DNA of 64,000 nt from an uncultured Bacteroidales bacterium (GTDB taxonomy: Bacteria > Bacteroidota > Bacteroidia > Bacteroidales > P3), in assembly GCA_900318835.1 (NCBI GenBank), contig ONLW01000006.1, positions 12,327 through 76,326 on the forward strand. The letters run 5' to 3'. The notes under the pieces are model-generated. The model made no database searches. It was given only the letters and a program-made list of their open reading frames with translations, and was not told where the DNA came from. Below are positions 1,739-64,000 of the stretch, piece after piece. How positions within the stretch are numbered: the first letter of the stretch is position 1; every line of letters begins with the position of its first letter. The translations under genes and the position numbers were made by a program.

Positions 1739-1756
1739 GGGGCAACCTCGCACAAA

Positions 1757-1817
1757 CTACCTACCAAACCCCTATCAACTCCTAACCAACTCCTACCATG
1801 GTAGGTGTTGATAGGTC
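1757..1817 (+). repeat. Intergenic 11-mer-array palindromic element, copy 1
   Basis: CTACCTACCAAACCCCTATCAACTCCTAACCAACTCCTACC-ATG-GTAGGTGTTGATAGGTC. About 4 units of the complement of GTARGGAGTTG face 1.5 units on the other side. Lies between convergent tex and sppA and is followed by a T-rich tail. Confidence 0.8.
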
Positions 1818-3722: not shown

Positions 3723-3731
3723 TGTAAATAG

Positions 3732-3763
3732 AATTGCGGCGAGCCGTTAGGCTCGCCGCAATT
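3732..3763 (-). terminator. Perfect 14-bp stem-loop directly after the fba stop and 10 nt before sppA
   Basis: AATTGCGGCGAGCC-gtta-GGCTCGCCGCAATT. Only a weak U-tail on the minus strand, so it may be a partial terminator or an RNA processing/stability element. Confidence 0.6.
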
Positions 3764-3766
3764 GTT

Positions 3767-4765
3767 TTAAAGCTTGTCGTTGCTTCCCAGCACATTCACA
3801 ATCTTGTGGATGTACATTTTCTTCATGCTCTCGCGGGCAGGTTTGAGGTACTGGCGGGGGTCGAAGTGGTCGGGGTGCTCGGCCATGTGCTTGCGGATGG
3901 CGGCGGTCATGGCGAGGCGGCTGTCGCTGTCGATGTTAATCTTGCAGACGGCGCTCTTGGCGGCCTTGCGGAGCTGCTCCTCGGGGATGCCCACGGCGGC
4001 CTTCAGGGCGCCACCGTTGGCGTTGATGGTGTCCACCTCGTCCTGGGGCACCGAGCTGGAGCCGTGGAGGACGATGGGGAAGCCGGGGAGTTTCTTCTCG
4101 ACGGCCTCGAGGACGTCGAAGGCCAGGGGAGGAGGCAGCAGGCGGCCGGTCTGGGGGTCGACGGTGCACTGTTCGGGTTTGAACTTGTAGGCGCCATGGG
4201 AGGTGCCGATGGAGATGGCCAGGGAGTCGCAGCCCGTGCGGGTGGCGAAGTCGATGACCTCTTCGGGCTTGGTGTAGTGGGAGACCTCGGAGGCTACCTC
4301 ATCCTCGACGCCGGCCAGCACTCCGAGCTCGCACTCGACGGTGACGTCATACTTGTGGGCATATTCCACCACCTGACGGGAAATCTTGATATTCTCCTCA
4401 TAGGGCAGGGCGCTGCCGTCGTACATGACGCTGGAGAAGCCCATGTCGATGCAGCTCTTGCAGGTCTCGAAGCTGTCGCCGTGGTCGAGGTGGAGGACGA
4501 TCTGGGGGTTGGGGCAACCGAGCTCCTTGGCATACTCGACGGCACCCTCGGCCATGTAGCGCAGGAGGGTGGGGTTGGCATAGTCGCGGGCACCCTTGCT
4601 GACCTGCAGGATGACGGGACTCTTGGTCTCGACGGTGGCCTGGATGATGGCCTGCATCTGCTCCATATTGTTGAAGTTGAAGGCGGGGATTGCATAGCCG
4701 CCGTTGACTGCTTTCTTGAACATCTCGCGGGTATTCACGAGACCGATTTTCTTGTAATCTACCAT
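3767..4765 (-). CDS. fba: Class II fructose-1,6-bisphosphate aldolase
   Basis: Motifs AIPAFNFNN, LHLDHGDS and GTSHGAYKF. Start moved to ATG 4763-4765 (MVDYKK) because the listed TTG start at 4805-4807 lies inside the -7 promoter box. Confidence 0.9.
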   Translation of the reverse strand: MVDYKKIGLVNTREMFKKAVNGGYAIPAFNFNNMEQMQAIIQATVETKSPVILQVSKGARDYANPTLLRYMAEGAVEYAKELGCPNPQIVLHLDHGDSFETCKSCIDMGFSSVMYDGSALPYEENIKISRQVVEYAHKYDVTVECELGVLAGVEDEVASEVSHYTKPEEVIDFATRTGCDSLAISIGTSHGAYKFKPEQCTVDPQTGRLLPPPLAFDVLEAVEKKLPGFPIVLHGSSSVPQDEVDTINANGGALKAAVGIPEEQLRKAAKSAVCKINIDSDSRLAMTAAIRKHMAEHPDHFDPRQYLKPARESMKKMYIHKIVNVLGSNDKL

Positions 4766-9773: not shown

Positions 9774-9843
9774 CAAAACATTTTCCCAGTATCCAAAGAA
9801 AAGATATTAACATCTGTTAACAAACCTGTTTTTGCCCTAAGAA

Positions 9844-9930
9844 CTCCCTATCAACACCTACTGCGGTAGGAGATGGTAGGGAGTTGGTAAGGAGATGGTA
9901 GGGAGTTGGTAAGGAGATGGTAGGGAGTTT
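9844..9930 (-). repeat. Intergenic 11-mer-array palindromic element, copy 2 (largest array)
   Basis: CTCCCTATCAACACCTAC-TGC-GGTAGG, then six consecutive 11-nt units GTARGGAG(A/T)TG. This equals 2.8 copies of the 22-mer GGAGATGGTAGGGAGTTGGTAA at 9869-9929. Confidence 0.85.
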
Positions 9931-11325: not shown

Positions 11326-13392
11326 TTAGATGGTTAGCTTGGCGCCGAAGAGGAGTGTGCGTGGTAGTGAAGGGCCGTAGATGTAGGCGGCGTCGCGTTC
11401 GGGGCCACTGTCGAGGTCGCGCTGGTATCTGTTGAAGATGTTTTGCAATCCAATGCTGATTTCCAGCTCGGTGCGTTCTCCAAAGGGGATGCTGTAGGCG
11501 GCTTTGAGCGAGAGATCGAGGAAGGAGTCGGTGATGACTTTCTGTACTTCGCTGCCACTGCCGTGCTTGGCGTCGTTAGCCACACTGTGGTAGACTAGCA
11601 TGGGACCGGTGAATGTGCCGGTGGCGGTGATTTGCAGGTGCTTGAAGGGGCTGTAGCTGCCGGTGAGGTAGGCGTAGAAGTCGGGCGTGCGCTCCATGCG
11701 GCGCTCATATTGGCCTTCTTCCCATTCCTTTCCCTGGCCGGTGTAGAGGCTGCTCTGCCAAGTGCCGCCAAGCTGCAGGCGCATGGCCTCGATGGGCGAG
11801 ATGGTCATCTCGACGTTGACGCCCATCACTTCGGCCCCGTTGGCGTTGCGACGCTCGTAGTGCATGTAGCCACTGGTGGTGTCGTCGAAAAGCAGCTCAT
11901 TGACAAAGGCATCGTTGATGCGGGTATAGAACCCTTCGATGAGCACGTCGGCCTCGAGGCTGCCGAGGTGCAGGCAAATGTCGGTCGAGCCGGTGATTGA
12001 GTGCGACTGCTCCATGCGGAGGTCGGGGGCATTAGTGATTTTGTATAGCTCGCCGTTGACGGCACCTACATGCAGGTCCTCGTCGTAGACCTGTGGCGCG
12101 CGGAAGCCCGAGGCATAGCCGACGCGGAGGGCCAGATGGTCGTTGGGGGCGTAGCGCAGGTTGAGGCGCGGGCTGACGACGGGAGCGTCAATCATCGTGT
12201 GTTTGTCCATGCGAGCTCCCACGAGGATGCTCCAGCGGAGGTTCTTCCATTCGTTCTGCAGGTAGGCGCTCAGGATGCCGATGTTCTGGCGTAGGGTTTC
12301 GGGACTGCCATAGGTGTGGTCTTTCAGACGGTCGAGGGTGTGCTCTAGGCCGGCGGTGAATTCGGCTGGCATGAGCCAAAGTGTGTCGAAATGGCGGCTG
12401 TAGAGAGCACCGTAGTTGAGTGTGAGGTCCTGCGTGTAGCCATAGGCGGTACCGAAGGGTTCATCGTCTTCGCGCTCGCCGTAGTAGCTCTCACGGTCGA
12501 CATGCTGCATCGAGGCAAAGAGCGAGGCATGGCGCAGGCCGCTGGCGGGCAGCCAGTCCCATTTAAGGCTGGCACTGTGGATGTCGTGCTCACCGCCTTC
12601 GGAGATGTGGGCCATGGGCGACGGCAGGTCGAAGCAATCGCCGCCGCGGCGGAAGTCGTGGATGTTATGGTATTCGAGGTTGAGCTTGGTGAAGTCTGAG
12701 GTGCGCAGGTAGCCGCGGAAGCCCACCATACGGGCCTTGAGCAGACCGATTTCGGAGTAGCCGTCGCCGTTATGGTCGTAAGGTTCGCGGTGACGGTTGT
12801 GGCCAAAGACAGCGATGCCTGCACGGCGGTCGTCGCTGACAACGGAGGCGTTGAACGAGTTGGAGAAATCCCAGCTCTTCCCGCCAATGAGGCTTGTTGT
12901 GTTGCCTACGCTGGCCTCATTGTATCGGGGCTCGCGGGTAATAACATTGATGACGCCGGCTATGGCGTTGCTGCCATAGAGTGCAGAGCCGCCGCCACGC
13001 AGCACCTCCACACGGTCAATCAAGGCTGTGGGCAGCTGGTCGAGTAGGTAAATTCCCGCCAGCGCACTGTTTACCGGACGGCTGTCGATGAGAATCTGTG
13101 AGTAAGCCTGGCCGAGACCATTGATACGCACCTCGTTGGCGCCGCAGTTTTGGCAAGTGTTCTCCACCCGCAGACCTGTGCTGAAGTTGAGGGCCTGGCC
13201 AAGGTTGACGGCGCTTGCAGCCTCCATCTGCCCGCCATCAATGACACCTACGGCTGTGGGCGCCTCACTACGCGAGGTGGCATGCTGTGTGGCCGTGACC
13301 ACTACTTGGCGCAGACGGATGGTGTCGCTGTGGCTCTGCGCCGTAGCCATCAGCGGAAAAATAGTTATGATTGTGATGATTATTTTCTTCAT
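11326..13392 (-). CDS. TonB-dependent receptor
   Basis: Signal peptide. Plug domain with VVVTATQ, CQNCG and RVEVLRGGGSALYGSNA. GFRAPQVYDEDLHVGAV...NAPDLRME boxes. C-terminal barrel. Confidence 0.85.
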   Translation of the reverse strand: MKKIIITIITIFPLMATAQSHSDTIRLRQVVVTATQHATSRSEAPTAVGVIDGGQMEAASAVNLGQALNFSTGLRVENTCQNCGANEVRINGLGQAYSQILIDSRPVNSALAGIYLLDQLPTALIDRVEVLRGGGSALYGSNAIAGVINVITREPRYNEASVGNTTSLIGGKSWDFSNSFNASVVSDDRRAGIAVFGHNRHREPYDHNGDGYSEIGLLKARMVGFRGYLRTSDFTKLNLEYHNIHDFRRGGDCFDLPSPMAHISEGGEHDIHSASLKWDWLPASGLRHASLFASMQHVDRESYYGEREDDEPFGTAYGYTQDLTLNYGALYSRHFDTLWLMPAEFTAGLEHTLDRLKDHTYGSPETLRQNIGILSAYLQNEWKNLRWSILVGARMDKHTMIDAPVVSPRLNLRYAPNDHLALRVGYASGFRAPQVYDEDLHVGAVNGELYKITNAPDLRMEQSHSITGSTDICLHLGSLEADVLIEGFYTRINDAFVNELLFDDTTSGYMHYERRNANGAEVMGVNVEMTISPIEAMRLQLGGTWQSSLYTGQGKEWEEGQYERRMERTPDFYAYLTGSYSPFKHLQITATGTFTGPMLVYHSVANDAKHGSGSEVQKVITDSFLDLSLKAAYSIPFGERTELEISIGLQNIFNRYQRDLDSGPERDAAYIYGPSLPRTLLFGAKLTI

Positions 13393-13476: not shown

Positions 13477-13806
13477 TTACGCCACCGGCGGTGCCCGCAG
13501 TTGTGCCACCCCATGGTGGAGCAGCATCGTCGGATTGGATGCCGACGAGAGAAGCATCTCCGCGGTGGGGAGGAGGATTGTCGATTGCCCCATGGCCTGA
13601 CTGAGATAGTCCAGGCTGAGGAAATGGCAATATTGGCAGTCGGATTGGTGATGGTGTTGCGCCTCGAAGTGACCGACGCATTGCAGGCAGTCGTCGTGGA
13701 GGTCAACAGTGTCATGATGGACGTGCAGCGACGACATTACCAGCATTGGCAGGTAGGCTGCCAACAGCACTATCGGGGCAATATGTCGCAATGCACGGTG
13801 GTTCAT
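13477..13806 (-). CDS. Membrane-anchored His/Cys-rich protein, putative metal-binding partner of the receptor
   Basis: One N-terminal TM segment, then HVHHDTVDLHDDCLQCVGHFEAQHHHQSDCQYCH (two CxxC motifs plus His clusters). Overlaps the upstream gene by 4 nt. Confidence 0.5.
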   Translation of the reverse strand: MNHRALRHIAPIVLLAAYLPMLVMSSLHVHHDTVDLHDDCLQCVGHFEAQHHHQSDCQYCHFLSLDYLSQAMGQSTILLPTAEMLLSSASNPTMLLHHGVAQLRAPPVA

Positions 13807-14090
13807 TTCTTTTTCTTCGGGTTGGCAGGAAACCAGCCTTTTCTTACGCGCTCACGCTGCTGGAAAAGTTCCAGGATTGACCAGAAACTGGAGAATGCCA
13901 CCACGCCAAGGATGGTCGAGGGAATGATGGCAGCGACCGCCAGCGATGCTGCCAGGCAACCGATGCCTGCCAGCAGAAACATCCACCAGCAACGCACTCC
14001 AAGATGGTATTCGGATTTGATGACGATGGGGTGAAAAAGCCCGATGCAGAGGAATGTGGCCGCCCCAATGATGATTCCAGTATAGTTCAT
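13803..14090 (-). CDS. DUF4491-family small membrane protein
   Basis: MNYTGIIIGAATFLCIGLFHPIVIKSEYH... Start moved to ATG 14088-14090. The listed GTG start at 14196-14198 would run through the tRNA terminator and the promoter. Confidence 0.6.
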   Translation of the reverse strand: MNYTGIIIGAATFLCIGLFHPIVIKSEYHLGVRCWWMFLLAGIGCLAASLAVAAIIPSTILGVVAFSSFWSILELFQQRERVRKGWFPANPKKKK

Positions 14091-15945: not shown

Positions 15946-16140
15946 TAGTAACGTGTTTTTTGAGGGTTTATTGTTCGTTTTTTTTTTAGTAGACGAAAGG
16001 AGGGCCGAAATCTTACACGGCCCTCGCTTCCGACCTCTCGGAAACGTAGAAAATACGTTGGTTGTATATGATTGGTTATCAGTGAGATGCTTTTTTGTAC
16101 AGTTGGAATGTTAGATAATGGGTAACTGGCTGTAAACCAG

Positions 16141-16193
16141 TTATCAACTCCCTACCAACTCCTAACCAACTCCTACCATAGTAGGTGTTGGTC
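16141..16193 (+). repeat. Intergenic 11-mer-array palindromic element, copy 3
   Basis: TTATCAACTCCCTACCAACTCCTAACCAACTCCTACC-ATA-GTAGGTGTTGGTC. Confidence 0.8.
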
Positions 16194-16224: not shown

Positions 16225-16263
16225 CATAAAAAGAAAAGCCCTACGGGCTATCCTCGTAGGGCT
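16225..16263 (-). terminator. Intrinsic terminator of proS
   Basis: AGCCCTACG-9 nt-CGTAGGGCT, followed on the minus strand by TTTCTTTTTAT. Confidence 0.75.
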
Positions 16264-16288
16264 GTTAATCGGCAAAATTTGTCGGTGG

Positions 16289-17761
16289 TTAGTAGCTGCG
16301 GGCGAAGACGACGCGGCGGTGGCTGGGTTTGCCGCTGTAGATACATTTGCCTTCCTCTTCGGGGGCATCGTAGGGGATGCAGCGGATGGTGGCCTTGGTC
16401 TCTTCCTTGATGCGTTCCTCGGTCTCAGGGGTGCCGTCCCAGTGGCAGAGCAGGAAGCCGTTCTTTTCAATCTCGACCTTGAAGTCGTCCCAGGTGTCGA
16501 CCTTGCGGGTCATCGAGGCGCGGAAGTCAGCAGCTTTCTTGAAGAGGTTCTTTTGGATATCCTCCATGAGGCCGTAGACGTGGTCGGCGATACCTTCGAG
16601 AGGCAGCGTAGCCTTTTCGAGTGTGTCGCGACGGCGCACCTCACAAGTGCCGTTCTCCATGTCGCGGGCACCGATGGCCAGCTGCACGGGGACGCCCTTG
16701 AACTCGTACTCGGTGAACTTCCAGCCGGGCTTGTACTCCGGACGGTTGTCGTATTTCACCACAAGGCCTTTGGCTTCGAGGGCTTTCACTATCGGGGCGA
16801 TATGTTCGTCGAGCTGGCGCTGCTGCTCGTCGCTCTTGCAGATGGGCACGATGGCCACATGGATGGGCGCCAGACGCGGCGGCAGGACGAGACCGTTGTC
16901 GTCGCTGTGGGTCATGATGAGGGCCCCCATCAGACGGGTGCTAACACCCCACGAGGTGGCCCATACGTATTCTAACTTATTCTCTTTGTTGAGGAACTGC
17001 ACCTCGAAGGCCTTGGCGAAGTTCTGTCCGAGGAAGTGGCTGGTACCGGCCTGGAGGGCCTTGCCGTCCTGCATCATAGCCTCGATGCAGAGGGTGTCGA
17101 GGGCACCGGCGAAGCGCTCGTTGGGGCTCTTGTGACCCTTGATGACGGGCACGGCCATGTAGTTCTCCACGAAGTCGCCGTAGACATCGAGCATCTTGCG
17201 AGCCTCGGCCTCGGCCTCCTCGCGGGTGGCGTGGGCGGTGTGGCCCTCCTGCCAGAGGAACTCGGCGGTGCGGAGGAACATGCGGGTGCGCATCTCCCAG
17301 CGCACGACGTTGGCCCACTGGTTGCAGAGGATGGGGAGGTCGCGGTAGGACTTGATCCAGTTCTTATAGGTGCTCCAGATGATGGTCTCGGAGGTGGGGC
17401 GCACGATGAGTTCTTCCTCGAGCTTGGCGGCGGGGTCAACGACGACGCCGTTGCCGTTGGGGTCGTTCATCAGGCGGTGGTGGGTCACCACGGCGCACTC
17501 TTTAGCAAAACCCTCCACGTGCTCGGCCTCACGGCTGAGGAAGCTCTTGGGGATGAAGAGAGGGAAGTAGGCGTTGACGTGGCCGGTGGCCTTGAACATG
17601 CTGTCGAGTTGGTGCTGCATCTTCTCCCAGATGGCATAGCCATAGGGTTTTATCACCATACATCCTCGGACAGCACTTTGCTCGGCGAGGTCGGCACGCA
17701 CCACCAGTTCGTTATACCATTCGGAATAGTTCTCACTACGTTTCGAGAAATCTTTAGCCAT
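16289..17761 (-). CDS. proS: Proline--tRNA ligase (archaeal/eukaryote-like type)
   Basis: [20 protein letters not shown]... N-terminus typical of Bacteroidetes ProRS, class II core, C-terminal [16 protein letters not shown]. Confidence 0.95.
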
Positions 17762-18676: not shown

Positions 18677-19918
18677 ATGAGAGTTCTGTATACAATAGGG
18701 ATTTGGTTTTATACTTTTGGTATCCGTCTGGTTGCCTTTTTTGGACACGAGAAAGCGCGTCAGATGGTTAAAGGGTGGAATCAGTGGCCCGGACAGGTGT
18801 CCAAGTTGAGCTCCGATGCTCCCACGGCCTGGTTTCATGCGGCTAGCCTCGGTGAATTCGAACAGGCGCGACCTGTGCTCGAAGAACTCCGTCGTCGGCA
18901 TCCAGACTATCAAGTGTTTGTTACCTTCTTCTCGCCTTCCGGCTATGAGGTGAGGAAAAATTACGCTCAAGCTGATGCGATATGCTACCTTCCAATGGAT
19001 ACCCCACGGAATGCGAGTCGGCTGTTGGATGCTGTAAAACCCTCGGTGGTCTTCTTTGTGAAGTATGAGTTTTGGTACAACTATCTGTGTATGTTGCGAA
19101 AACGCGGCATCCCGACCTACATCTTCTCTACCATCTTCCGCCCTAACCAGTACTTTTTCAAGTGGTATGGTGGATGGTTCCGTCGACAACTCAAGTCCTC
19201 CTTTGCTCATCTTTTTGTGCAGAACGAGGAAAGCCTACGTTTGTTGAAAGGCATTGGCATCGGGCAGTGCTCGTTGGCAGGTGACACACGTTTCGACCGG
19301 GTACATCAGATTGCTGAGGCTTCTGAAAGCAATGATGTTGTGGAGAAATTCCTCCAGGGTTATGATGGCAAGGTGCTGGTGGGAGGAAGTACGTGGCCTC
19401 CCGACGAGGAGATTATCTCCCATGTGCGAGAGTGCAATAATGGCTGGTTTCCTGGCCGCATTATTCTGGCCCCCCACGTGATTAGCGAAGAACATCTCAA
19501 GCAGATAGAATCCCTCTTCCCCGACAGCGTTAGGTATTCTGTTTTGGCAGGGATGAACGGTAGTACCAGTAAAGTTTTGATTATCGATAATATCGGCCTT
19601 CTTTCCAAGCTCTATCGTTATGCCGATGTGGCCTATATCGGAGGTGGCTTCGGAGTGGGAATACACAATATCCTCGAGGCTGTTACTTTCGGCAAGCCTG
19701 TTTTCTTTGGCCCCAACTATAAGAAGTTTCAGGAGGCGTGTGACATCATTGTCCGTGGTGGCGGTTGGAGCATTGGCATTGCAAAAGAGTTGGAAGATGA
19801 ACTGAAACAACTAGTGACCGCTCCAGAAGTGTTTCGGAAATCCTCGCAGGCCTGCACCGACTATATGAGTGAGAACCTAGGTAGCACAGAAAAGATTCTT
19901 TCCACCATTGAGATTTAG
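18677..19918 (+). CDS. waaA: 3-deoxy-D-manno-octulosonic acid (Kdo) transferase
   Basis: WFHAASLGEFEQARPV motif and GT30 architecture. The ATG at 18677 lies 2 nt after the upstream stop; the listed start is TTG 18671. Confidence 0.9.
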   Translation: MRVLYTIGIWFYTFGIRLVAFFGHEKARQMVKGWNQWPGQVSKLSSDAPTAWFHAASLGEFEQARPVLEELRRRHPDYQVFVTFFSPSGYEVRKNYAQADAICYLPMDTPRNASRLLDAVKPSVVFFVKYEFWYNYLCMLRKRGIPTYIFSTIFRPNQYFFKWYGGWFRRQLKSSFAHLFVQNEESLRLLKGIGIGQCSLAGDTRFDRVHQIAEASESNDVVEKFLQGYDGKVLVGGSTWPPDEEIISHVRECNNGWFPGRIILAPHVISEEHLKQIESLFPDSVRYSVLAGMNGSTSKVLIIDNIGLLSKLYRYADVAYIGGGFGVGIHNILEAVTFGKPVFFGPNYKKFQEACDIIVRGGGWSIGIAKELEDELKQLVTAPEVFRKSSQACTDYMSENLGSTEKILSTIEI

Positions 19919-26711: not shown

Positions 26712-26780
26712 TCCATCCGACCGTTCTGAGTTGTGGTGTATGGGAGTAATGTATGGTTGCTCCCTTTTTCGTTTCAAATG

Positions 26781-26861
26781 CCTATCAACATCCTACCAAC
26801 ACCCTTTCAAGTCCTACTATGGTAGGAGTTGGTAGGGTGTTGGTAGGGGTTTGGTAAGGTG
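26781..26861 (-). repeat. Intergenic 11-mer-array palindromic element, copy 4
   Basis: CCTATCAACATCCTACCAACACCCTTTCAAGTCCTAC-TAT-GGTAGGAGTTGGTAGGGTGTTGGTAGGGGTTTGGTAAGGTG. It continues into a G/T-rich degenerate tract to about 26935. Confidence 0.8.
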
Positions 26862-26992
26862 ATTGTGTTTAGTGTGTGGTAGTTAGGTACTGTTTTGTGT
26901 GTATTCTGCTGTGGGATAGTGCGTTATGTGTATGGCTGTAAATTCGGTGTAAATTTTTTGAATTTTTTTTTACAATGTAAGTGATTTAGTTG

Positions 26993-38970: not shown

Positions 38971-39152
38971 CGATTTATTTATTGTATGATTTATTATAAA
39001 AATATTTTTATTCGCCCTTAACTATCTTTTCAGTCTGAATGGATTTAACATCTGTTAAGTTAATTTTATGGTACGAATAACCCTTCATCTACCTGTTTTC
39101 GGTGCGTGTCCCCGTTTTTGTTGCAAAACTCTCTGTACCTGATAGAGATAAA

Positions 39153-39231
39153 CTACCTACCATCTCCTTACCAATTCCTAACCAACTCCTACCATAGTAG
39201 GTGTTGATAGGTGTGTGGTAGGATGTTGGTG
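39153..39231 (+). repeat. Intergenic 11-mer-array palindromic element, copy 5
   Basis: CTACCTACCATCTCCTTACCAATTCCTAACCAACTCCTACC-ATA-GTAGGTGTTGATAGGTGTGTGGTAGGATGTTGGTG. Confidence 0.8.
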
Positions 39232-44028: not shown

Positions 44029-44041
44029 TTTTGAATTGGTC

Positions 44042-44091
44042 AAAAAAAAAGAAACTCCGCAGAGCTCATCGCTCTGCGGAGTTTTCTTTTT
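44042..44091. terminator. Bidirectional intrinsic terminator
   Basis: A9 run, then AAACTCCGCAGAGC-tcatc-GCTCTGCGGAGTTT, then TCTTTTT. Lies between convergent stops at 44028 and 44104. Confidence 0.85.
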
Positions 44092-44103
44092 GTGATGATG
44101 GTG

Positions 44104-45288
44104 TTATTCGCGAATAATGTTTTCGGGGCGGATTTCCTCTTCGGTGATGGTGTTTACGAGGGTGGGGGAGTAGGGACGTGTGAGGCGGATGTAGTTGTCG
44201 GTCCAGCCCTGCATGTTGTCGCCGTGAGCGGTGGACTCCCAGAGCACTGGACGGACCTTGCCGATTTGGCTGGCGATGAACTCTTTGTGTTTCTTTTCGC
44301 TGAGTTCGAGAAGACGGGCGGTGTGCTCGTGTCGTACTGGGATTGGAATCTTCTCGCCAAGTTTCAGGGCAGCGGTTCCAGGACGGTCGCTATAGGTGAA
44401 GACGTGGAGATAGGAGATGGGTAGCGAGTCGATGAAACTGAGCACCTTGCCGAACTCCTCCTCGCTCTCGCCGTTGAAGCCTGCCATCACGTCGGCAGCT
44501 ATGCAGGCGTCGGGCATCACTCTCTTGATGCACTCCAGTTTGTTGCGGTAGAGGGCGGTGTCGTAGCGGCGATGCATAAGTTGCAGCACATGGTCGCTCC
44601 CAGCTTGCAGGGGAATGTGAAAGTGGGGGAGGAATGCTCGGCTGTGTGCTACAAAGTCGATAATATCATCGGTGAGCAAGTTGGGCTCGATGGAGGAGAT
44701 GCGGTAGCGCAGGATACCTTCTAATTTATCTAGTTTATCTAGTAGCTTTAGGAAGCTTTCTCCCTGATGCTGGCCGAAGGTGCCTGTGTTGACGCCGGTG
44801 AGAATGACTTCTTTGGCACCTGTTTGGGCGATGCGTCTCGCCGCGCACAGGGTTTCTTCCAGACTCGCCGACCGTGAGCGACCGCGGGCGTATGGAATGG
44901 CGCAATAGGTGCAGAAATAGTCGCAGCCGTCCTGAATCTTGAAGAAGGTGCGGGTGCGATCCTCGCCCGAGTAGGAGAGAAGTCGCTTGCTTTCGTTTCC
45001 CAATACTTGGGTAACGCCAGGCATTTTCTTGATTTCTTCGGCGGCTACTTGAGCAAAACATCCCATCACGACAATCTGTGCGTCGGGGCTCTGACGGTGG
45101 GCTTGACGGATAGCGTTGCGGCACTTTTTCTCGGCGACGGCAGTGACGGTGCATGTGTTGACGATATAGAGATCGGCTGGAGTGTGAAAGTCGACTATGG
45201 TGTTGCCCTCCTCTGAGAGACGACGAAGGAGATCGGATGTTTCTGCATAGTTGAGTTTACAGCCAAGAGTTTGTGCGGCGATTTTCAT
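44104..45288 (-). CDS. mtaB: tRNA t6A37 methylthiotransferase MtaB (radical SAM)
   Basis: MTTase N-domain QTLGCKLNYAETS, radical SAM CDYFCTYC, C-terminal TRAM-like region. Confidence 0.85.
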   Translation of the reverse strand: MKIAAQTLGCKLNYAETSDLLRRLSEEGNTIVDFHTPADLYIVNTCTVTAVAEKKCRNAIRQAHRQSPDAQIVVMGCFAQVAAEEIKKMPGVTQVLGNESKRLLSYSGEDRTRTFFKIQDGCDYFCTYCAIPYARGRSRSASLEETLCAARRIAQTGAKEVILTGVNTGTFGQHQGESFLKLLDKLDKLEGILRYRISSIEPNLLTDDIIDFVAHSRAFLPHFHIPLQAGSDHVLQLMHRRYDTALYRNKLECIKRVMPDACIAADVMAGFNGESEEEFGKVLSFIDSLPISYLHVFTYSDRPGTAALKLGEKIPIPVRHEHTARLLELSEKKHKEFIASQIGKVRPVLWESTAHGDNMQGWTDNYIRLTRPYSPTLVNTITEEEIRPENIIRE

Positions 45289-60697: not shown

Positions 60698-60768
60698 CCC
60701 TTACACAACCTAACCAACACCTACTGCAGTAGGTGTTGGTAGGGAGTTGGTAAGGAGTTGGTATGTGG
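60698..60768 (-). repeat. Intergenic 11-mer-array palindromic element, copy 6
   Basis: CCCTTACACAACCTAACCAACACCTAC-TGC-AGTAGGTGTTGGTAGGGAGTTGGTAAGGAGTTGGTATGTGG. Confidence 0.8.
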
Positions 60769-60959
60769 TTTATCTATATTTGGTACAGTGTGTTAGGTTC
60801 GAAATCGGGATTTTGTCGCAGAAACTGGTGGCTATAGCGGTTTTGATTTTGTGAAATTAACTTAATAAATGTTAAATAGCGATGGATGTTTCTTGTTGAA
60901 AAACCTCCATGTTTTGGCAGCACCATATTTTTATTATGTTTTTTTTCTGTGTGACGCAA

Positions 60960-61820: not shown

Positions 61821-64000
61821 GTGGCAGGAGCGAAAAAGAAACAGGCTGCAAAGCCAAAGGGTAAGGGCAAGAGCACTCCAAGGGGGAAAAACCGCTGGGG
61901 CGCTTTTGTCGCGTTTGTGAAGAGTGAGCGTTTTGCGCATATCCGCGGTGTGGTGTATGTGCTGTTTGCAGTGTTTCTGCTGCTGTCGCTGACGAGCTAT
62001 TATGCGACAGGCTGCGACCCGACGCGCCATTGGCTGAAGACTTTGGGCTTCGGGACGGCAGAGTTTTTCGCCGTCAATCTTTTTGGTATCGGCAGCCTAG
62101 GATTCACATTGTTGTTCTTCGTCTACGGCCTGCGGCTGTGGAGGGTGAGCGTGATGCCATGGTGGAAGACCTTCGGCAGCACAATGTTCTGGATGGCGTG
62201 GCTGAGTGTGACGTTAGGCTACATCGCGGTGAAATGGATGTCGGGAGGCGTGGGCTTCGAGCAGTATGCGGGCATCGGTGTGCTGATGGCCGAGCCGTTG
62301 GAGAACCTCATGGGCTGGTGGACGCTGGTGCTGCTGGTGGCTGTGGCCGTGGCAGTGCTGGTGATGGTTCACAAGATGGAACTGCCCGAGGTGCATGTGC
62401 CGAAGATCGACCTGAAGAAGGTTATTGAAGAGGTGGAGAAGGTTGAGGAGAAGGAGGGGAAAAAGGCCAAGAAGAAGGTTGAACCCGAATTCATCGACTT
62501 CGCCGAGCAGCAACAGGAGGAGGACGAAGGTGCCGAGTTTGAGGAGGCTGCGATGGAGTTGTTCCGGCAACACAATCCGGTGGAACCGGAGGAGGAACGC
62601 AACCAGAAGACCGAGCCGCAGGACAATCTGGAGGGGGAAGTGGCGTTTGGCATCGACGACGAGTTTGTCCGAGTGAATGCAAAGGCACAGGAGACGGGGG
62701 AAGAGAAGACGGAGGATGTGACGTTCACCATTGAAGGAGAGACGGAAGTGGAAGGTGGAGAGGTGGAAGAGAAAAGTGAAGATAGGGAAGAAGAAAGTGA
62801 AGAGATGGCGGAGGAGGGTGAAGAACTGGAAGAGGATGACTACAGGAGGCATTACGGCTTGGACGAGCCGTATGACCCGCATCTGGATTTGAGTGACTAT
62901 GAGATGCCTGAGACGGGTATCCTCGAGGACTGGGAGGTGGCCAACACCAAAGTAACCAAGGAGGAGCTCGTGGCCAACAAGGACCGCATCGTGCAGACGC
63001 TGAGGGACTATGGCATCGAGATTACCGACATCAGCGCCATACCGGGACCTACGGTGACGCTCTACAAGATTAAGCCTGCCGCGGGTGTCAGAATCTCGAA
63101 GATTAAGAATCTGGAGGACGACATTGCCTTGAGCCTTGCGGCCTTGGGTATCCGCATCATTGCACCGATTCCAGGCGAAAGCAATGTGGGTATCGAGGTG
63201 CCGAATGCGAAGCCGCAGGTGGTGGCCATGAAGACCATGCTGGAGAGCGAGGCCTTCCAGAAGGCCAAGGAGAAGATGGAGTTGCCGATAGCCTTCGGCA
63301 AAACCATCTCGAACGAGTGTTTCGTGACCGACCTGGCCAAGATGCCTCATTTGCTGATGGCTGGAGCCACAGGTACGGGTAAGTCGGTCGGCTTGAATGC
63401 CGTGCTGGCGAGCCTGCTCTACACCAAGCATCCCAGCGAACTGAAGCTGGTGCTTGTGGATCCGAAGAAGGTGGAGTTTAGCCTCTATTCGGCATTGGAA
63501 CGCCACTATCTGGCCAAGATGCCCGACGAGGAAGAGGCCGTGATCACCGACGTCAAGAAGGTGGTGCGGACGTTGAACTCGCTCTGCATCGAGATGGACA
63601 GCCGCTACGACCTGCTGAAACAGGCCAAGGTGAGGAAGATTACAGAATACAATGAGAAGTTCTGCAAGCGGATGCTGAATCCGGAGCACGGACATAGGTA
63701 TCTGCCCTATATCGTGGTGGTGATTGACGAGTTTGGCGACTTGATTATGACGGCCGGCAAGGAAGTGGAACTGCCTATTGCACGACTGGCGCAGCTGGCC
63801 CGTGCCGTGGGTATCCATCTGATTATCGCCACCCAGCGTCCCACGACGAACATCATCACGGGCACCATAAAAGCCAACTTCCCCGCACGAGTGGCGTTCC
63901 GTGTGACGAGTGGTATCGATTCGAAGACCATCCTCGATACCGGTGGCGCACAGCAGCTGATAGGTCGTGGCGATATGCTTATTTCATTGGCAGGCAAGGA
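61821..64000 (+). CDS. ftsK: DNA translocase FtsK/SpoIIIE; 3' end lies outside the window; not in the ORF track because no stop is reached
   Basis: My translation runs from GTG 61821. Basic N-terminus, 4 TM segments, acidic linker, then MPHLLMAGATGTGKSVGLNA (Walker A), IVVVIDEFGDL (Walker B) and IHLIIATQRP. Confidence 0.9.
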   Translation, partial: MAGAKKKQAAKPKGKGKSTPRGKNRWGAFVAFVKSERFAHIRGVVYVLFAVFLLLSLTSYYATGCDPTRHWLKTLGFGTAEFFAVNLFGIGSLGFTLLFFVYGLRLWRVSVMPWWKTFGSTMFWMAWLSVTLGYIAVKWMSGGVGFEQYAGIGVLMAEPLENLMGWWTLVLLVAVAVAVLVMVHKMELPEVHVPKIDLKKVIEEVEKVEEKEGKKAKKKVEPEFIDFAEQQQEEDEGAEFEEAAMELFRQHNPVEPEEERNQKTEPQDNLEGEVAFGIDDEFVRVNAKAQETGEEKTEDVTFTIEGETEVEGGEVEEKSEDREEESEEMAEEGEELEEDDYRRHYGLDEPYDPHLDLSDYEMPETGILEDWEVANTKVTKEELVANKDRIVQTLRDYGIEITDISAIPGPTVTLYKIKPAAGVRISKIKNLEDDIALSLAALGIRIIAPIPGESNVGIEVPNAKPQVVAMKTMLESEAFQKAKEKMELPIAFGKTISNECFVTDLAKMPHLLMAGATGTGKSVGLNAVLASLLYTKHPSELKLVLVDPKKVEFSLYSALERHYLAKMPDEEEAVITDVKKVVRTLNSLCIEMDSRYDLLKQAKVRKITEYNEKFCKRMLNPEHGHRYLPYIVVVIDEFGDLIMTAGKEVELPIARLAQLARAVGIHLIIATQRPTTNIITGTIKANFPARVAFRVTSGIDSKTILDTGGAQQLIGRGDMLISLAGK

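Follow-up and report, generated by a model that had tools for sequence, protein, structure and literature searches.

Results

The six family A copies of the window

The subject of this work is a short intergenic repeat in 64,000 nucleotides (nt) of DNA from an uncultured Bacteroidales bacterium (GenBank assembly GCA_900318835.1, contig ONLW01000006.1, positions 12,327 to 76,326 of the forward strand). This whole stretch is referred to as the window, and its positions are counted from its first letter. The window has a G+C content of 51.5% and carries Bacteroidota-type promoter boxes (TGCAAAGATAC...). The initial annotation had described six intergenic elements in it, each with an array of tandem 11-nt units that meets one or two units of opposite polarity at a short palindrome. 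Our analysis confirms that the six sites belong to a genuine dispersed repeat family, here named family A, whose copies exclude one another over approximately 5 kb of chromosome.

The flanking genes of the copies were named by Pfam. By our polarity convention, an element on the + strand reads as a short C-rich arm, then the centre, then a long G-rich arm. Copy 1 (1753..1815, - strand, 50.4 bits in the covariance model described below) is situated between the 3' ends of the convergent Tex and SppA genes; its centre CCATGG occupies 1796-1801, with the long G-rich arm (as - strand) on the left and the short arm on the right. Copy 2 (9838..9930, + strand, 64.3 bits) lies between the divergent PhoH and nucleotidyl transferase genes with its centre CTGCGG near 9861-9866, and the long arm on its right contains a perfect 22-nt x 2.8 tandem expansion (period 22 with 100% matches in Tandem Repeats Finder, TRF). 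Copy 3 (16120..16190, - strand, 57.4 bits) is found downstream of the prolyl-tRNA synthetase (ProRS) gene proS, in tandem context with a hypothetical gene as its other neighbour, approximately 40 nt beyond the intrinsic terminator of proS (16230-16275). Its centre CCATAG lies near 16176-16181, and its long arm, on the left, ends in a terminal module (16120-16145) that is the reverse complement of GATAACTGGTTTACAGCCAGTTACCC. Copy 4 (26781..26886, + strand, 73.5 bits, hairpin z -6.98) stands in tandem context between a sugar transferase gene and a decarboxylase gene, downstream of the sugar-transferase terminator (about 26743-26770) and some 140 bp upstream of the decarboxylase promoter box. With its centre CTATGG near 26817-26822 and arms of 26 nt it is the most symmetric copy of the window, and its right arm continues to a terminal ...GGTAGTTAG at 26886. 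Copy 5 (39150..39231, - strand, 61.8 bits) separates a DUF1599 gene from the divergent folP (FolP) gene, with its centre CCATAG near 39192-39197 and its long arm on the left. Copy 6 (60698..60775, + strand, 58.8 bits) is located upstream of a 7TM-HD gene, its other neighbour being unnamed and the context probably divergent; its centre CTGCAG (about 60724-60729) has a perfect 12-bp stem and its longer arm is on the right. As a group the window copies are of an asymmetric type and somewhat degraded compared with those of the genomes RUG11699 and RUG156.

Several analyses support the existence of the family. Allowing up to two mismatches, the 11-nt unit CAACTCCTACC occurs 42 times in the window as opposed to 14.5 +/- 3.4 times in shuffled windows, none of 100 of which reached 42. 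A cluster scan for CCTAYC/GRTAGG units returned exactly six clusters, each containing both polarities. A covariance model of the kind proposed in the initial annotation was built from 107 family copies and run over the window with filters off; it scored the six copies at 38-73 bits, while the next-best match in the window reached 14.6 bits. These two independent scans find the six sites originally proposed and these only. TRF reports arrays of period 11 or 22 at all six copies, in keeping with the 11-bp period first suggested, and DNA hairpin folding gave z values of -3.5 to -7.0, each copy folding better than all 200 of its shuffles. All six copies were recovered at the positions first given, and copies 3 and 4 reach further out through the terminal module, to 16120 and 26886. 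The division into three copies of each orientation corresponds to true polarity: the + strand carries copies 2, 4 and 6, and the - strand copies 1, 3 and 5. Adjacent copies also tend to alternate in polarity: the long arms of the window point left, right, left, right, left and right (the sixth weakly called), and among the orientable adjacent pairs of the window, L120 and the tile pairs L046/L004 and L030/L010 six are opposite and one is the same, which is too few to test.

Distribution among rumen Bacteroidales

A species-representative genome collection was scanned for the exact core CCAWCWCCTACYRYRGTAGGWSTTG and tiles of 8 kb were taken from it. The scan for further copies in other genomes, which the initial annotation had called for, returned at least 98 tiles from at least 13 species-level uncultured Bacteroidales metagenome-assembled genomes (MAGs) whose titles point to the rumen. 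These hosts include UBA2939, RUG156, RUG11699, RGIG4993 (roe deer rumen), ruminal_MAG_50 and RGIG3262 (goat reticulum). At least 120 further stretches matched in a metagenome collection. No match to family A was found in viral contigs, phage records or plasmid records, and an origin from phages or plasmids was rejected on these grounds. The density in the window is approximately one copy per 10 kb.

The ProRS genes of the window and of UBA2939 (window 16289-17761 against L088:1547-3016) encode proteins that are 99.6% identical while their DNA is only 82% identical, which indicates that the hosts of family A form a tight clade of distinct species. The synonymous sites of this gene are near saturation between the two species, and purifying selection on it is very strong. 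In the metagenome collection contigs end approximately 20-150 bp from many copies (for example L106, L127, L138, L139, L142, L153, L159, L174 and L175), which suggests that the palindromes break short-read assemblies.

The initial annotation recognized no named repeat family in the element, and Rfam and the literature agree with this. At the gathering score Rfam matches only a tRNA in the window and none of the elements. In E-value mode the elements give chance matches to microRNA (miRNA) hairpins that score 25-33 bits, where the gathering scores are 72-140. No description of the element came to light in literature searches.

Mutual avoidance within 5 kb

The copies are not placed independently of one another. 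Among the 98 tiles listed, four contain two copies, and in all four the copies are 5.2-6.1 kb apart according to both the regular-expression scan and the covariance model. Two random points in an 8-kb tile fall more than 5 kb apart with a probability of 9/64, and for all four pairs to do so has a p value of about 4e-4 at any density. A pooled set was then assembled from the tiles, the metagenome stretches and the window, with redundant DNA removed. Its 1.17 Mb of exposure below 5 kb yields two pairs, one of which is a false positive, and its 0.43 Mb of exposure at 5-15 kb yields 15. Neighbours closer than 5 kb are thus about 20-fold rarer than neighbours at 5-15 kb (ratio 0.05, binomial p = 2e-7). 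The one true close pair is in L120, at a distance of 3.0 kb. Expressed per 10 kb, neighbour density is approximately zero at 0-3 kb, reaches 0.3-0.8 at 5-10 kb and increases to 1.3-1.8 at 10-15 kb.

The same pattern appears when the availability of intergenic regions is taken into account. Of the intergenic regions of at least 120 bp, none of 111 within 2.5 kb of a copy was occupied and 3 of 88 at 2.5-5 kb were, which makes 3 of 199 below 5 kb, whereas 16 of 88 were occupied at 5-15 kb; each pair is counted here from both of its members. In the window, where the gaps between copies measure 8.1, 6.3, 10.6, 12.4 and 21.5 kb, six of 13 eligible intergenic regions are occupied. We can think of no assembly artefact that would vary with distance over this range. 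These results show that family A copies mutually exclude one another within about 5 kb, also after control for the available intergenic regions. Avoidance over such a distance implies that something acts in cis over kilobases, and it is compatible with, though no proof of, a cis-acting protein, such as might bind the phased 11-bp units in the iteron- or NAP-like manner suggested by the initial annotation.

Anatomy of the element

To resolve the structure of the element, the 107 copies were parsed from the centre outward and then aligned. The copies measure 50-120 bp and are inverted repeats as a whole. They are organized around a near-perfect palindromic core of approximately 46-50 bp, CAAC-NN-CCCTAYC-AACTCCTACC-RY-GGTAGGAGTT-GRTAGGG-NN-GTTG, which has two 10/11-bp units per arm. 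The first unit of each arm is 10-11 bp long (TAGGAGTTGG[T/G]) and later units are 11 bp long (TAGGG-NN-TTGR). The centre, CAAC-(T/A)-CCTAC-C-RY-G-GTAGG-(A/T)-GTTG, is invariant in the alignment; conservation is thus highest here, and it is lowest at the outer ends. Beyond the core, either arm may carry further tandem 11-bp units that are variable in number and have no mirror in the other arm. A terminal module of approximately 25 bp, GATAACTGGTTTATAGGYAGTTAG or a variant of it, ends one arm in 26 copies and both arms in one copy, and it was found only beside elements and never apart from them. Its presence on one arm gives the element a polarity, and the central dinucleotide follows this polarity (where it reads CGTG, the long arm is the right-hand one in 20 copies versus 4). 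The initial picture of an array meeting one or two opposed units is accordingly refined to a near-perfect palindrome of two units per arm, to which unmirrored units and a one-sided terminal module are added.

Across 27 columns per arm of the alignment, 82.9% of cells are able to pair. A global test of arm-to-arm covariation was negative, since the arms of a given copy are no more complementary to each other than swapped arms and a shuffle control of a 58-column alignment gave no excess. Covariation of the whole stem is consequently not claimed, and significance was reached only by a focused test of unit 2 in symmetric copies. Of the 34 copies of this type, 24 have a variable unit-2 dinucleotide that is mirrored from one arm to the other, compared with 9.1 expected, and none of 20,000 permutations reached 24, although orthologous copies inflate this count. 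Unit 3 displays no mirroring between the arms of symmetric copies. The mirroring of unit 2 and not of unit 3 indicates a paired core of approximately two units, or 21-22 bp, per arm. Such mirroring can arise from hairpin-templated correction of quasi-palindromes rather than from selection.

Individual arms also bear marks of recent change. Perfect one-arm tandem expansions are seen in copy 2 of the window and in L056, which has seven ATCTACCTACC units. Some units are specific to a lineage, such as the 12-nt GGGTAGGAGTTG (also GGGTAGGAG) in RGIG4993 and bin.131 and GGTACGG in RUG153 and RUG11969. The arms lengthen and shorten through tandem slippage.

DNA curvature was predicted with a wedge model. 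In four of the six window copies the peak exceeds the window's 99th percentile, but the difference between elements and the centres of element-free intergenic regions is small (medians of 28.8 and 25.5 degrees). Elements of families B1 and C, found in sister clades, are predicted not to be curved. Under this model static curvature was rejected as a defining property.

Foldbacks with other unit sequences

For an unbiased view of copy density in relatives, six loci of 19-21 kb around proS were analyzed from species whose ProRS is 93-79% identical. None of these six loci contains a canonical family A copy. They instead carry elements that share its build, in which tandem units of 11 nt lead through a short centre into inverted units, but are made of other unit sequences. 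In L228 an element at 11562-11659, just after the proS terminator as is copy 3 of the window, consists of four TTCTYCGATTG units, then CAAA, then four CAATCGRAGAA units; a family-A-like copy is present in the same locus at 3790-3861. L226 holds AGTTCRACTTG foldbacks at 11512-11575 (after proS) and 19243-19304 together with CTGTTCTTTTA foldbacks near 4434-4474 and 13803-13860. Further foldbacks are found in L039 at 4392-4472 (CGTTAATTATC) and in L210 at 1173-1226 (GATATAAGAAC). The unit sequences of such foldbacks, which also occur in some family A genomes, are unrelated or only distantly related, and several read CAA followed by eight variable positions. In all fetched DNA, 11 is by a wide margin the commonest TRF period, with 509 rows versus 125 for period 10 and 179 for period 12.

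Many unrelated unit sequences sharing one build could be taken as the outcome of a purely local process without a dedicated protein, in which slippage expands an 11-nt unit, template switching at a quasi-palindrome mirrors it and gene conversion homogenizes the result. The perfect, recent expansions of single arms and the mirroring of unit 2 without that of unit 3 agree with such an origin. It fails to account for hundreds of copies at unrelated loci that share a 46-bp core, an order of units and a one-sided terminal module, and it explains neither the 5-kb exclusion nor the preference for 11 nt in every family. We therefore consider a local origin quite improbable.

Other repeats were noticed in the same material. 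One intergenic array is composed of 10-nt units, each with the palindrome CCTAGG (CCTAGGAAAAC and similar), in three to four copies (L036:1680-1723, L032:926-952 and L224:318-357). Tandem repeats inside long open reading frames (ORFs) of the window comprise a GA-rich 21-nt x 4.7 repeat at 62738-62836 and an 8-nt x 4.9 repeat of TTGATTGC at 2793-2831. Two long perfect hairpins flanked by A-runs and T-runs occupy short gaps, one at 3725-3770, beyond the SppA start (3722), and one at 44043-44093, beyond the stop of a 984-aa ORF (44028); they resemble intrinsic terminators that work in both directions and have no relation to family A.

Genomic context and the level of action

Gene context was taken from crude ORF calls, by which 84 copies could be classified. 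As the initial annotation had noted for the window, copies occur between convergent, tandem and divergent genes, and they do so in proportion to the DNA available: 41 copies are in tandem, 23 in divergent and 20 in convergent regions, matching intergenic bases of 56%, 25% and 19% for the three classes. The copies are confined to intergenic DNA as had been proposed, the 11 apparent overlaps with ORFs all being at ORF ends. Relative to transcription, the polarity of the copies in tandem contexts shows no preference (9 versus 13).

The strong predicted hairpins, and the location of copies 1, 3 and 4 just downstream of genes, raise the question of whether the element acts as RNA, either as a terminator, as an mRNA-stabilizing 3' hairpin or as a small RNA. 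As regards termination, the elements have no T-run, separate canonical hairpin-plus-T-run terminators of the flanking genes precede copies 3 and 4, and 27% of the classified copies are divergent; the intrinsic terminator was rejected on this basis, and the original view that the copies are not simply terminators stands. The same upstream terminators and missing T-runs argue against the other RNA roles. Moreover, the 23 copies between divergent genes are in places that read-through transcription should not reach, the orientation of copies is unbiased, and Rfam offers no family apart from miRNA-hairpin chance matches far below threshold. An RNA role is thus unlikely, and in our estimation extremely so. 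Taken together, the flanking genes' own terminators, the occupancy of divergent regions and the lack of an orientation bias indicate a feature that acts at the DNA level.

Partner genes and the relation to REP elements

REP (repetitive extragenic palindrome) sequences were an obvious point of comparison. A REP is defined as a single stem-loop of 20-40 nt with an unpaired GTAG (or CGTC) tag at one end (PMC3733652), and such elements, together with REPINs, may be mobilized by RAYTs (REP-associated tyrosine transposases), domesticated IS200-like Y1 transposases, via single-stranded hairpin intermediates. In a 2013 survey GTAG REPs with a RAYT were not listed for Bacteroidetes (PMC3733652). The fetched DNA was searched for RAYTs with a seed sequence, and the match was confirmed by Pfam. 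A RAYT-like Y1 transposase gene was located in RUG156, one of the family A genomes (L078:1507-2043, Pfam Y1_Tnp, E = 5.6e-13). Both this gene and its 73%-identical relative P0001 in L105 are flanked by a different, classical GTAG-REP, GGTAGGGGCGTACCCCCGTGTACGCCCG, which forms pairs of the type CGGGCGTACACGGGGGTACGCCCCTACC...GGTAGGGGCGTACCCCCGTGTACGCCCG at L078:1430-2340 and L105:1430-2170. L078 also contains a tandem array of approximately seven repeats, of about 40 nt each, of the GGTAGGGGCGTACCCCCGTGTACGCCCG REP. That REP is absent from the window, and a Y1 gene occurs neither there nor adjacent to any family A copy. Family A was accordingly rejected as the REP of the L078/L105 RAYT.

In a broader sense, mobilization of family A by some RAYT draws on the fact that the elements are high-copy extragenic palindromes with GTAGG in every unit, recalling the GTAG tag of REPs (PMC3733652), and on the existence of a RAYT in RUG156. 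Against it, the RAYTs found are flanked by a different REP, the GTAG of family A is inside the stem and is not an unpaired tag, no Y1 gene accompanies the copies, and 27% of the copies are divergent whereas REPs favor sites downstream of genes (PMC3733652). We regard this explanation as very improbable. Family A shares the high copy number of REP/REPIN elements but neither their single tagged stem-loop nor, in the DNA fetched, a flanking RAYT.

Other kinds of partner were likewise not found. No autonomous relative with matching ends was found, there being no multi-copy ORF in the approximately 0.8 Mb of tiles and window and the terminal module occurring only beside elements, and the fetched DNA contains no TnsB-, MuA- or TnpA-like gene and no DDE transposase with an AAA+ regulator.

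Stability and turnover

Within the species of the window, two other assemblies carry an identical copy 3, and in four others the length of copy 4 is unchanged, with only two single-nucleotide polymorphisms inside the element. Between species many orthologous sites are filled: orthologs of copy 5 are present in UBA2939 (L044) and bin.131 (L097), an ortholog of copy 3 in UBA2939 and an ortholog of copy 6 in RGIG4993 (L099). Two unbiased orthologous comparisons are both empty in the other species (L055 versus L056 and L096 versus L010), and a third empty site was found in a comparison of L079 and L151 with L131. The insertion polymorphism for which a check had been suggested at the outset is therefore seen between species, at three sites, and is not seen within the window species at two sites in 3-5 strains. 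Family A copies are stable inside a species and subject to gain and loss between species.

Synteny with UBA2939 stops exactly at the end of the long arm of copy 5 (window 39151 versus L044). A rearrangement relative to UBA2939 (L088, L044) also has its breakpoints in the intergenic region of copy 3 (16289) and at 44030-44105. Elements of this family may be markers of rearrangement breakpoints.

Discussion

The interpretation that we tentatively favor, with a probability of roughly 45%, is that family A is non-autonomous foldback mobile DNA, similar to MITEs (miniature inverted-repeat transposable elements) and REPs, whose phased units bind a trans-acting protein and whose exclusion in cis resembles target immunity. 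The element would work at the DNA level and would descend from a non-autonomous mobile sequence similar to MITEs and REPs. The phased units would be putative binding sites for a protein supplied in trans, which may be a transposase, a recombinase or a host protein, and its centre could extrude as a hairpin or cruciform of approximately 22 bp. The mirrored positions may be kept symmetric by selection for pairing or by the hairpin-templated correction mentioned above. The near absence of a second copy within 5 kb would then be cis exclusion comparable to the target immunity of Tn7, Mu and Tn3, where transposase bound to arrays of end sites blocks insertion nearby. The ends of Tn7 consist of arrays of 22-bp TnsB sites, and it is these sites that confer target immunity (PMC9308760). 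At 50-120 bp and as an inverted repeat, the element is within the size range of MITEs (50-500 bp, with terminal inverted repeats), but its outer ends are its least conserved part.

A number of observations weigh against this interpretation. A conserved centre with variable outer ends is the reverse of a classical transposon that is cut at its ends, and all-against-all clustering of 738 ORFs from the 98 tiles and the window (about 0.8 Mb) revealed no recurrent gene beside the elements. Within the window species no difference in presence or absence exists at copies 3 and 4 among 3-5 strains. In the three alignments of filled and empty sites, flank identity is approximately 80-85%, too diverged to place the ends of the element or a target duplication. 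In 13 of 15 orthologous pairs, conservation is higher in the element than in the remainder of its intergenic region, a result that favors selection on the element, although these pairs were ascertained by an exact core match, which biases it. In sister clades an element of the same build and different sequence occupies the same site after proS, and a functional site explains such an arrangement more easily than does a selfish element. Finally, we know of no report of target immunity for a high-copy miniature element.

Some of these observations would be better accommodated if the copies were host sites of chromosome architecture under selection. They might be approximately evenly spaced binding or nucleation sites for a nucleoid-associated protein, topoisomerase or condensin, or cruciform supercoil sinks at approximately one per topological domain; in the former case the palindromic centre would serve as the nucleation site from which the protein spreads along the phased units of 11 bp. 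The exclusion zone, with neighbour density rising to at least 1 per 10 kb at 10-15 kb, is in line with such sites. So are the position of the strongest conservation at the centre, the conservation of elements relative to their intergenic surroundings, the occupation of sites in several species, the persistence of build and place after proS in sister clades, the independence of position from gene orientation and a mean unit length of 10-11 bp, near one helical turn. On the other side stand the empty sites, namely the two unbiased comparisons and the third case, and the turnover of units between close clades, which would require a binding protein to co-evolve with hundreds of sites. No candidate protein is at hand, the elements have hardly more predicted static curvature than other intergenic DNA while families B1 and C have none, and one true pair is only 3.0 kb apart. 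We regard an architectural function, the main rival to mobile DNA, as possible but doubtful.

A bolder form of this idea can be put forward as unlikely but consequential. In it, a rumen Bacteroidales clade punctuates its chromosome every 6-15 kb or so, and never at less than about 5 kb, with foldback sites that nucleate a DNA-binding protein or extrude as cruciforms and so define supercoil or loop domains; the units, particular to each genus-level lineage, would co-evolve with the protein while the architecture and the sites, for example after proS, persist. If true, this would amount to a sequence-encoded system of regularly spaced chromosome-domain markers, and to our knowledge no such system has been described in bacteria.

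Several known systems resemble family A in part. One is BrickBuilt, a minisatellite-containing MITE of Porphyromonas gingivalis (PMC4596501), which likewise inhabits a member of the Bacteroidales, is strictly intergenic and has an internal tandem array of variable copy number, set between a 'leader' and a 'tail' module. Its 23-nt units form a single direct array, and the element has a length of 84-991 nt, 19 copies per genome and short terminal inverted repeats (PMC4596501). In family A, by contrast, units of 11 nt form two arrays that face each other across a palindromic centre, the length is 50-120 nt and the density about ten times higher, and the two have no sequence similarity. The foldback (FB) elements of Drosophila also have long inverted arms of tandem short repeats whose lengths vary between copies and between arms. 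They are eukaryotic, are kilobases long and have known transposase relatives, and the likeness to family A is one of form only. Centromeres of the parC/ParR type and plasmid iterons are tandem 11-bp direct repeats bound cooperatively on one face of the helix; they occur once or a few times per replicon beside the gene of their binding protein, whereas family A occurs approximately once per 10 kb of chromosome.

REP, BIME (bacterial interspersed mosaic element) and REPIN sequences of Proteobacteria are, like family A, short extragenic palindromes with hundreds of copies and long vertical inheritance; their subfamilies show complementary stem changes, and they are proposed binding sites for gyrase, IHF and HU. 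Family A differs in its modular tandem 10/11-bp arms with GTAGG in the stem, as opposed to a single 20-40-nt hairpin with an unpaired GTAG, and in having neither a flanking RAYT nor a bias to sites downstream of genes. Its copies also avoid each other, while REPs often cluster into BIMEs. The ends of Tn7, Mu and Tn3 are similar to family A in form only, with phased inverted repeat arrays (22 bp in Tn7, or twice 11) and two ends that differ from each other (PMC9308760). When bound, these ends prevent a second insertion over several kb, to which the local exclusion of family A is comparable. They flank several kb of cargo and possess conserved terminal nucleotides and 5-bp target duplications, while the 'ends' of family A abut at the centre, its outer termini are variable, no duplication could be read in the diverged flanks and the fetched DNA has no gene for a transposase of these types.

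Dispersed intergenic palindromes such as REPs and MITEs are already known. As far as checked, with ISfinder and Dfam outside the comparison, what is novel here is the modular 11-bp foldback build with lineage-specific units, the one-sided module and the exclusion zone of approximately 5 kb. We are aware of no report of a mutual exclusion zone of this size for any bacterial miniature repeat. The elements may also serve as lineage markers for uncultured rumen Bacteroidales. The exclusion in cis would represent either transposition immunity exerted by a miniature element or selection that keeps architectural sites at even spacing. Whichever of the two applies would shed light on how genomes are organized in the Bacteroidota, a phylum whose nucleoid biology is little known.

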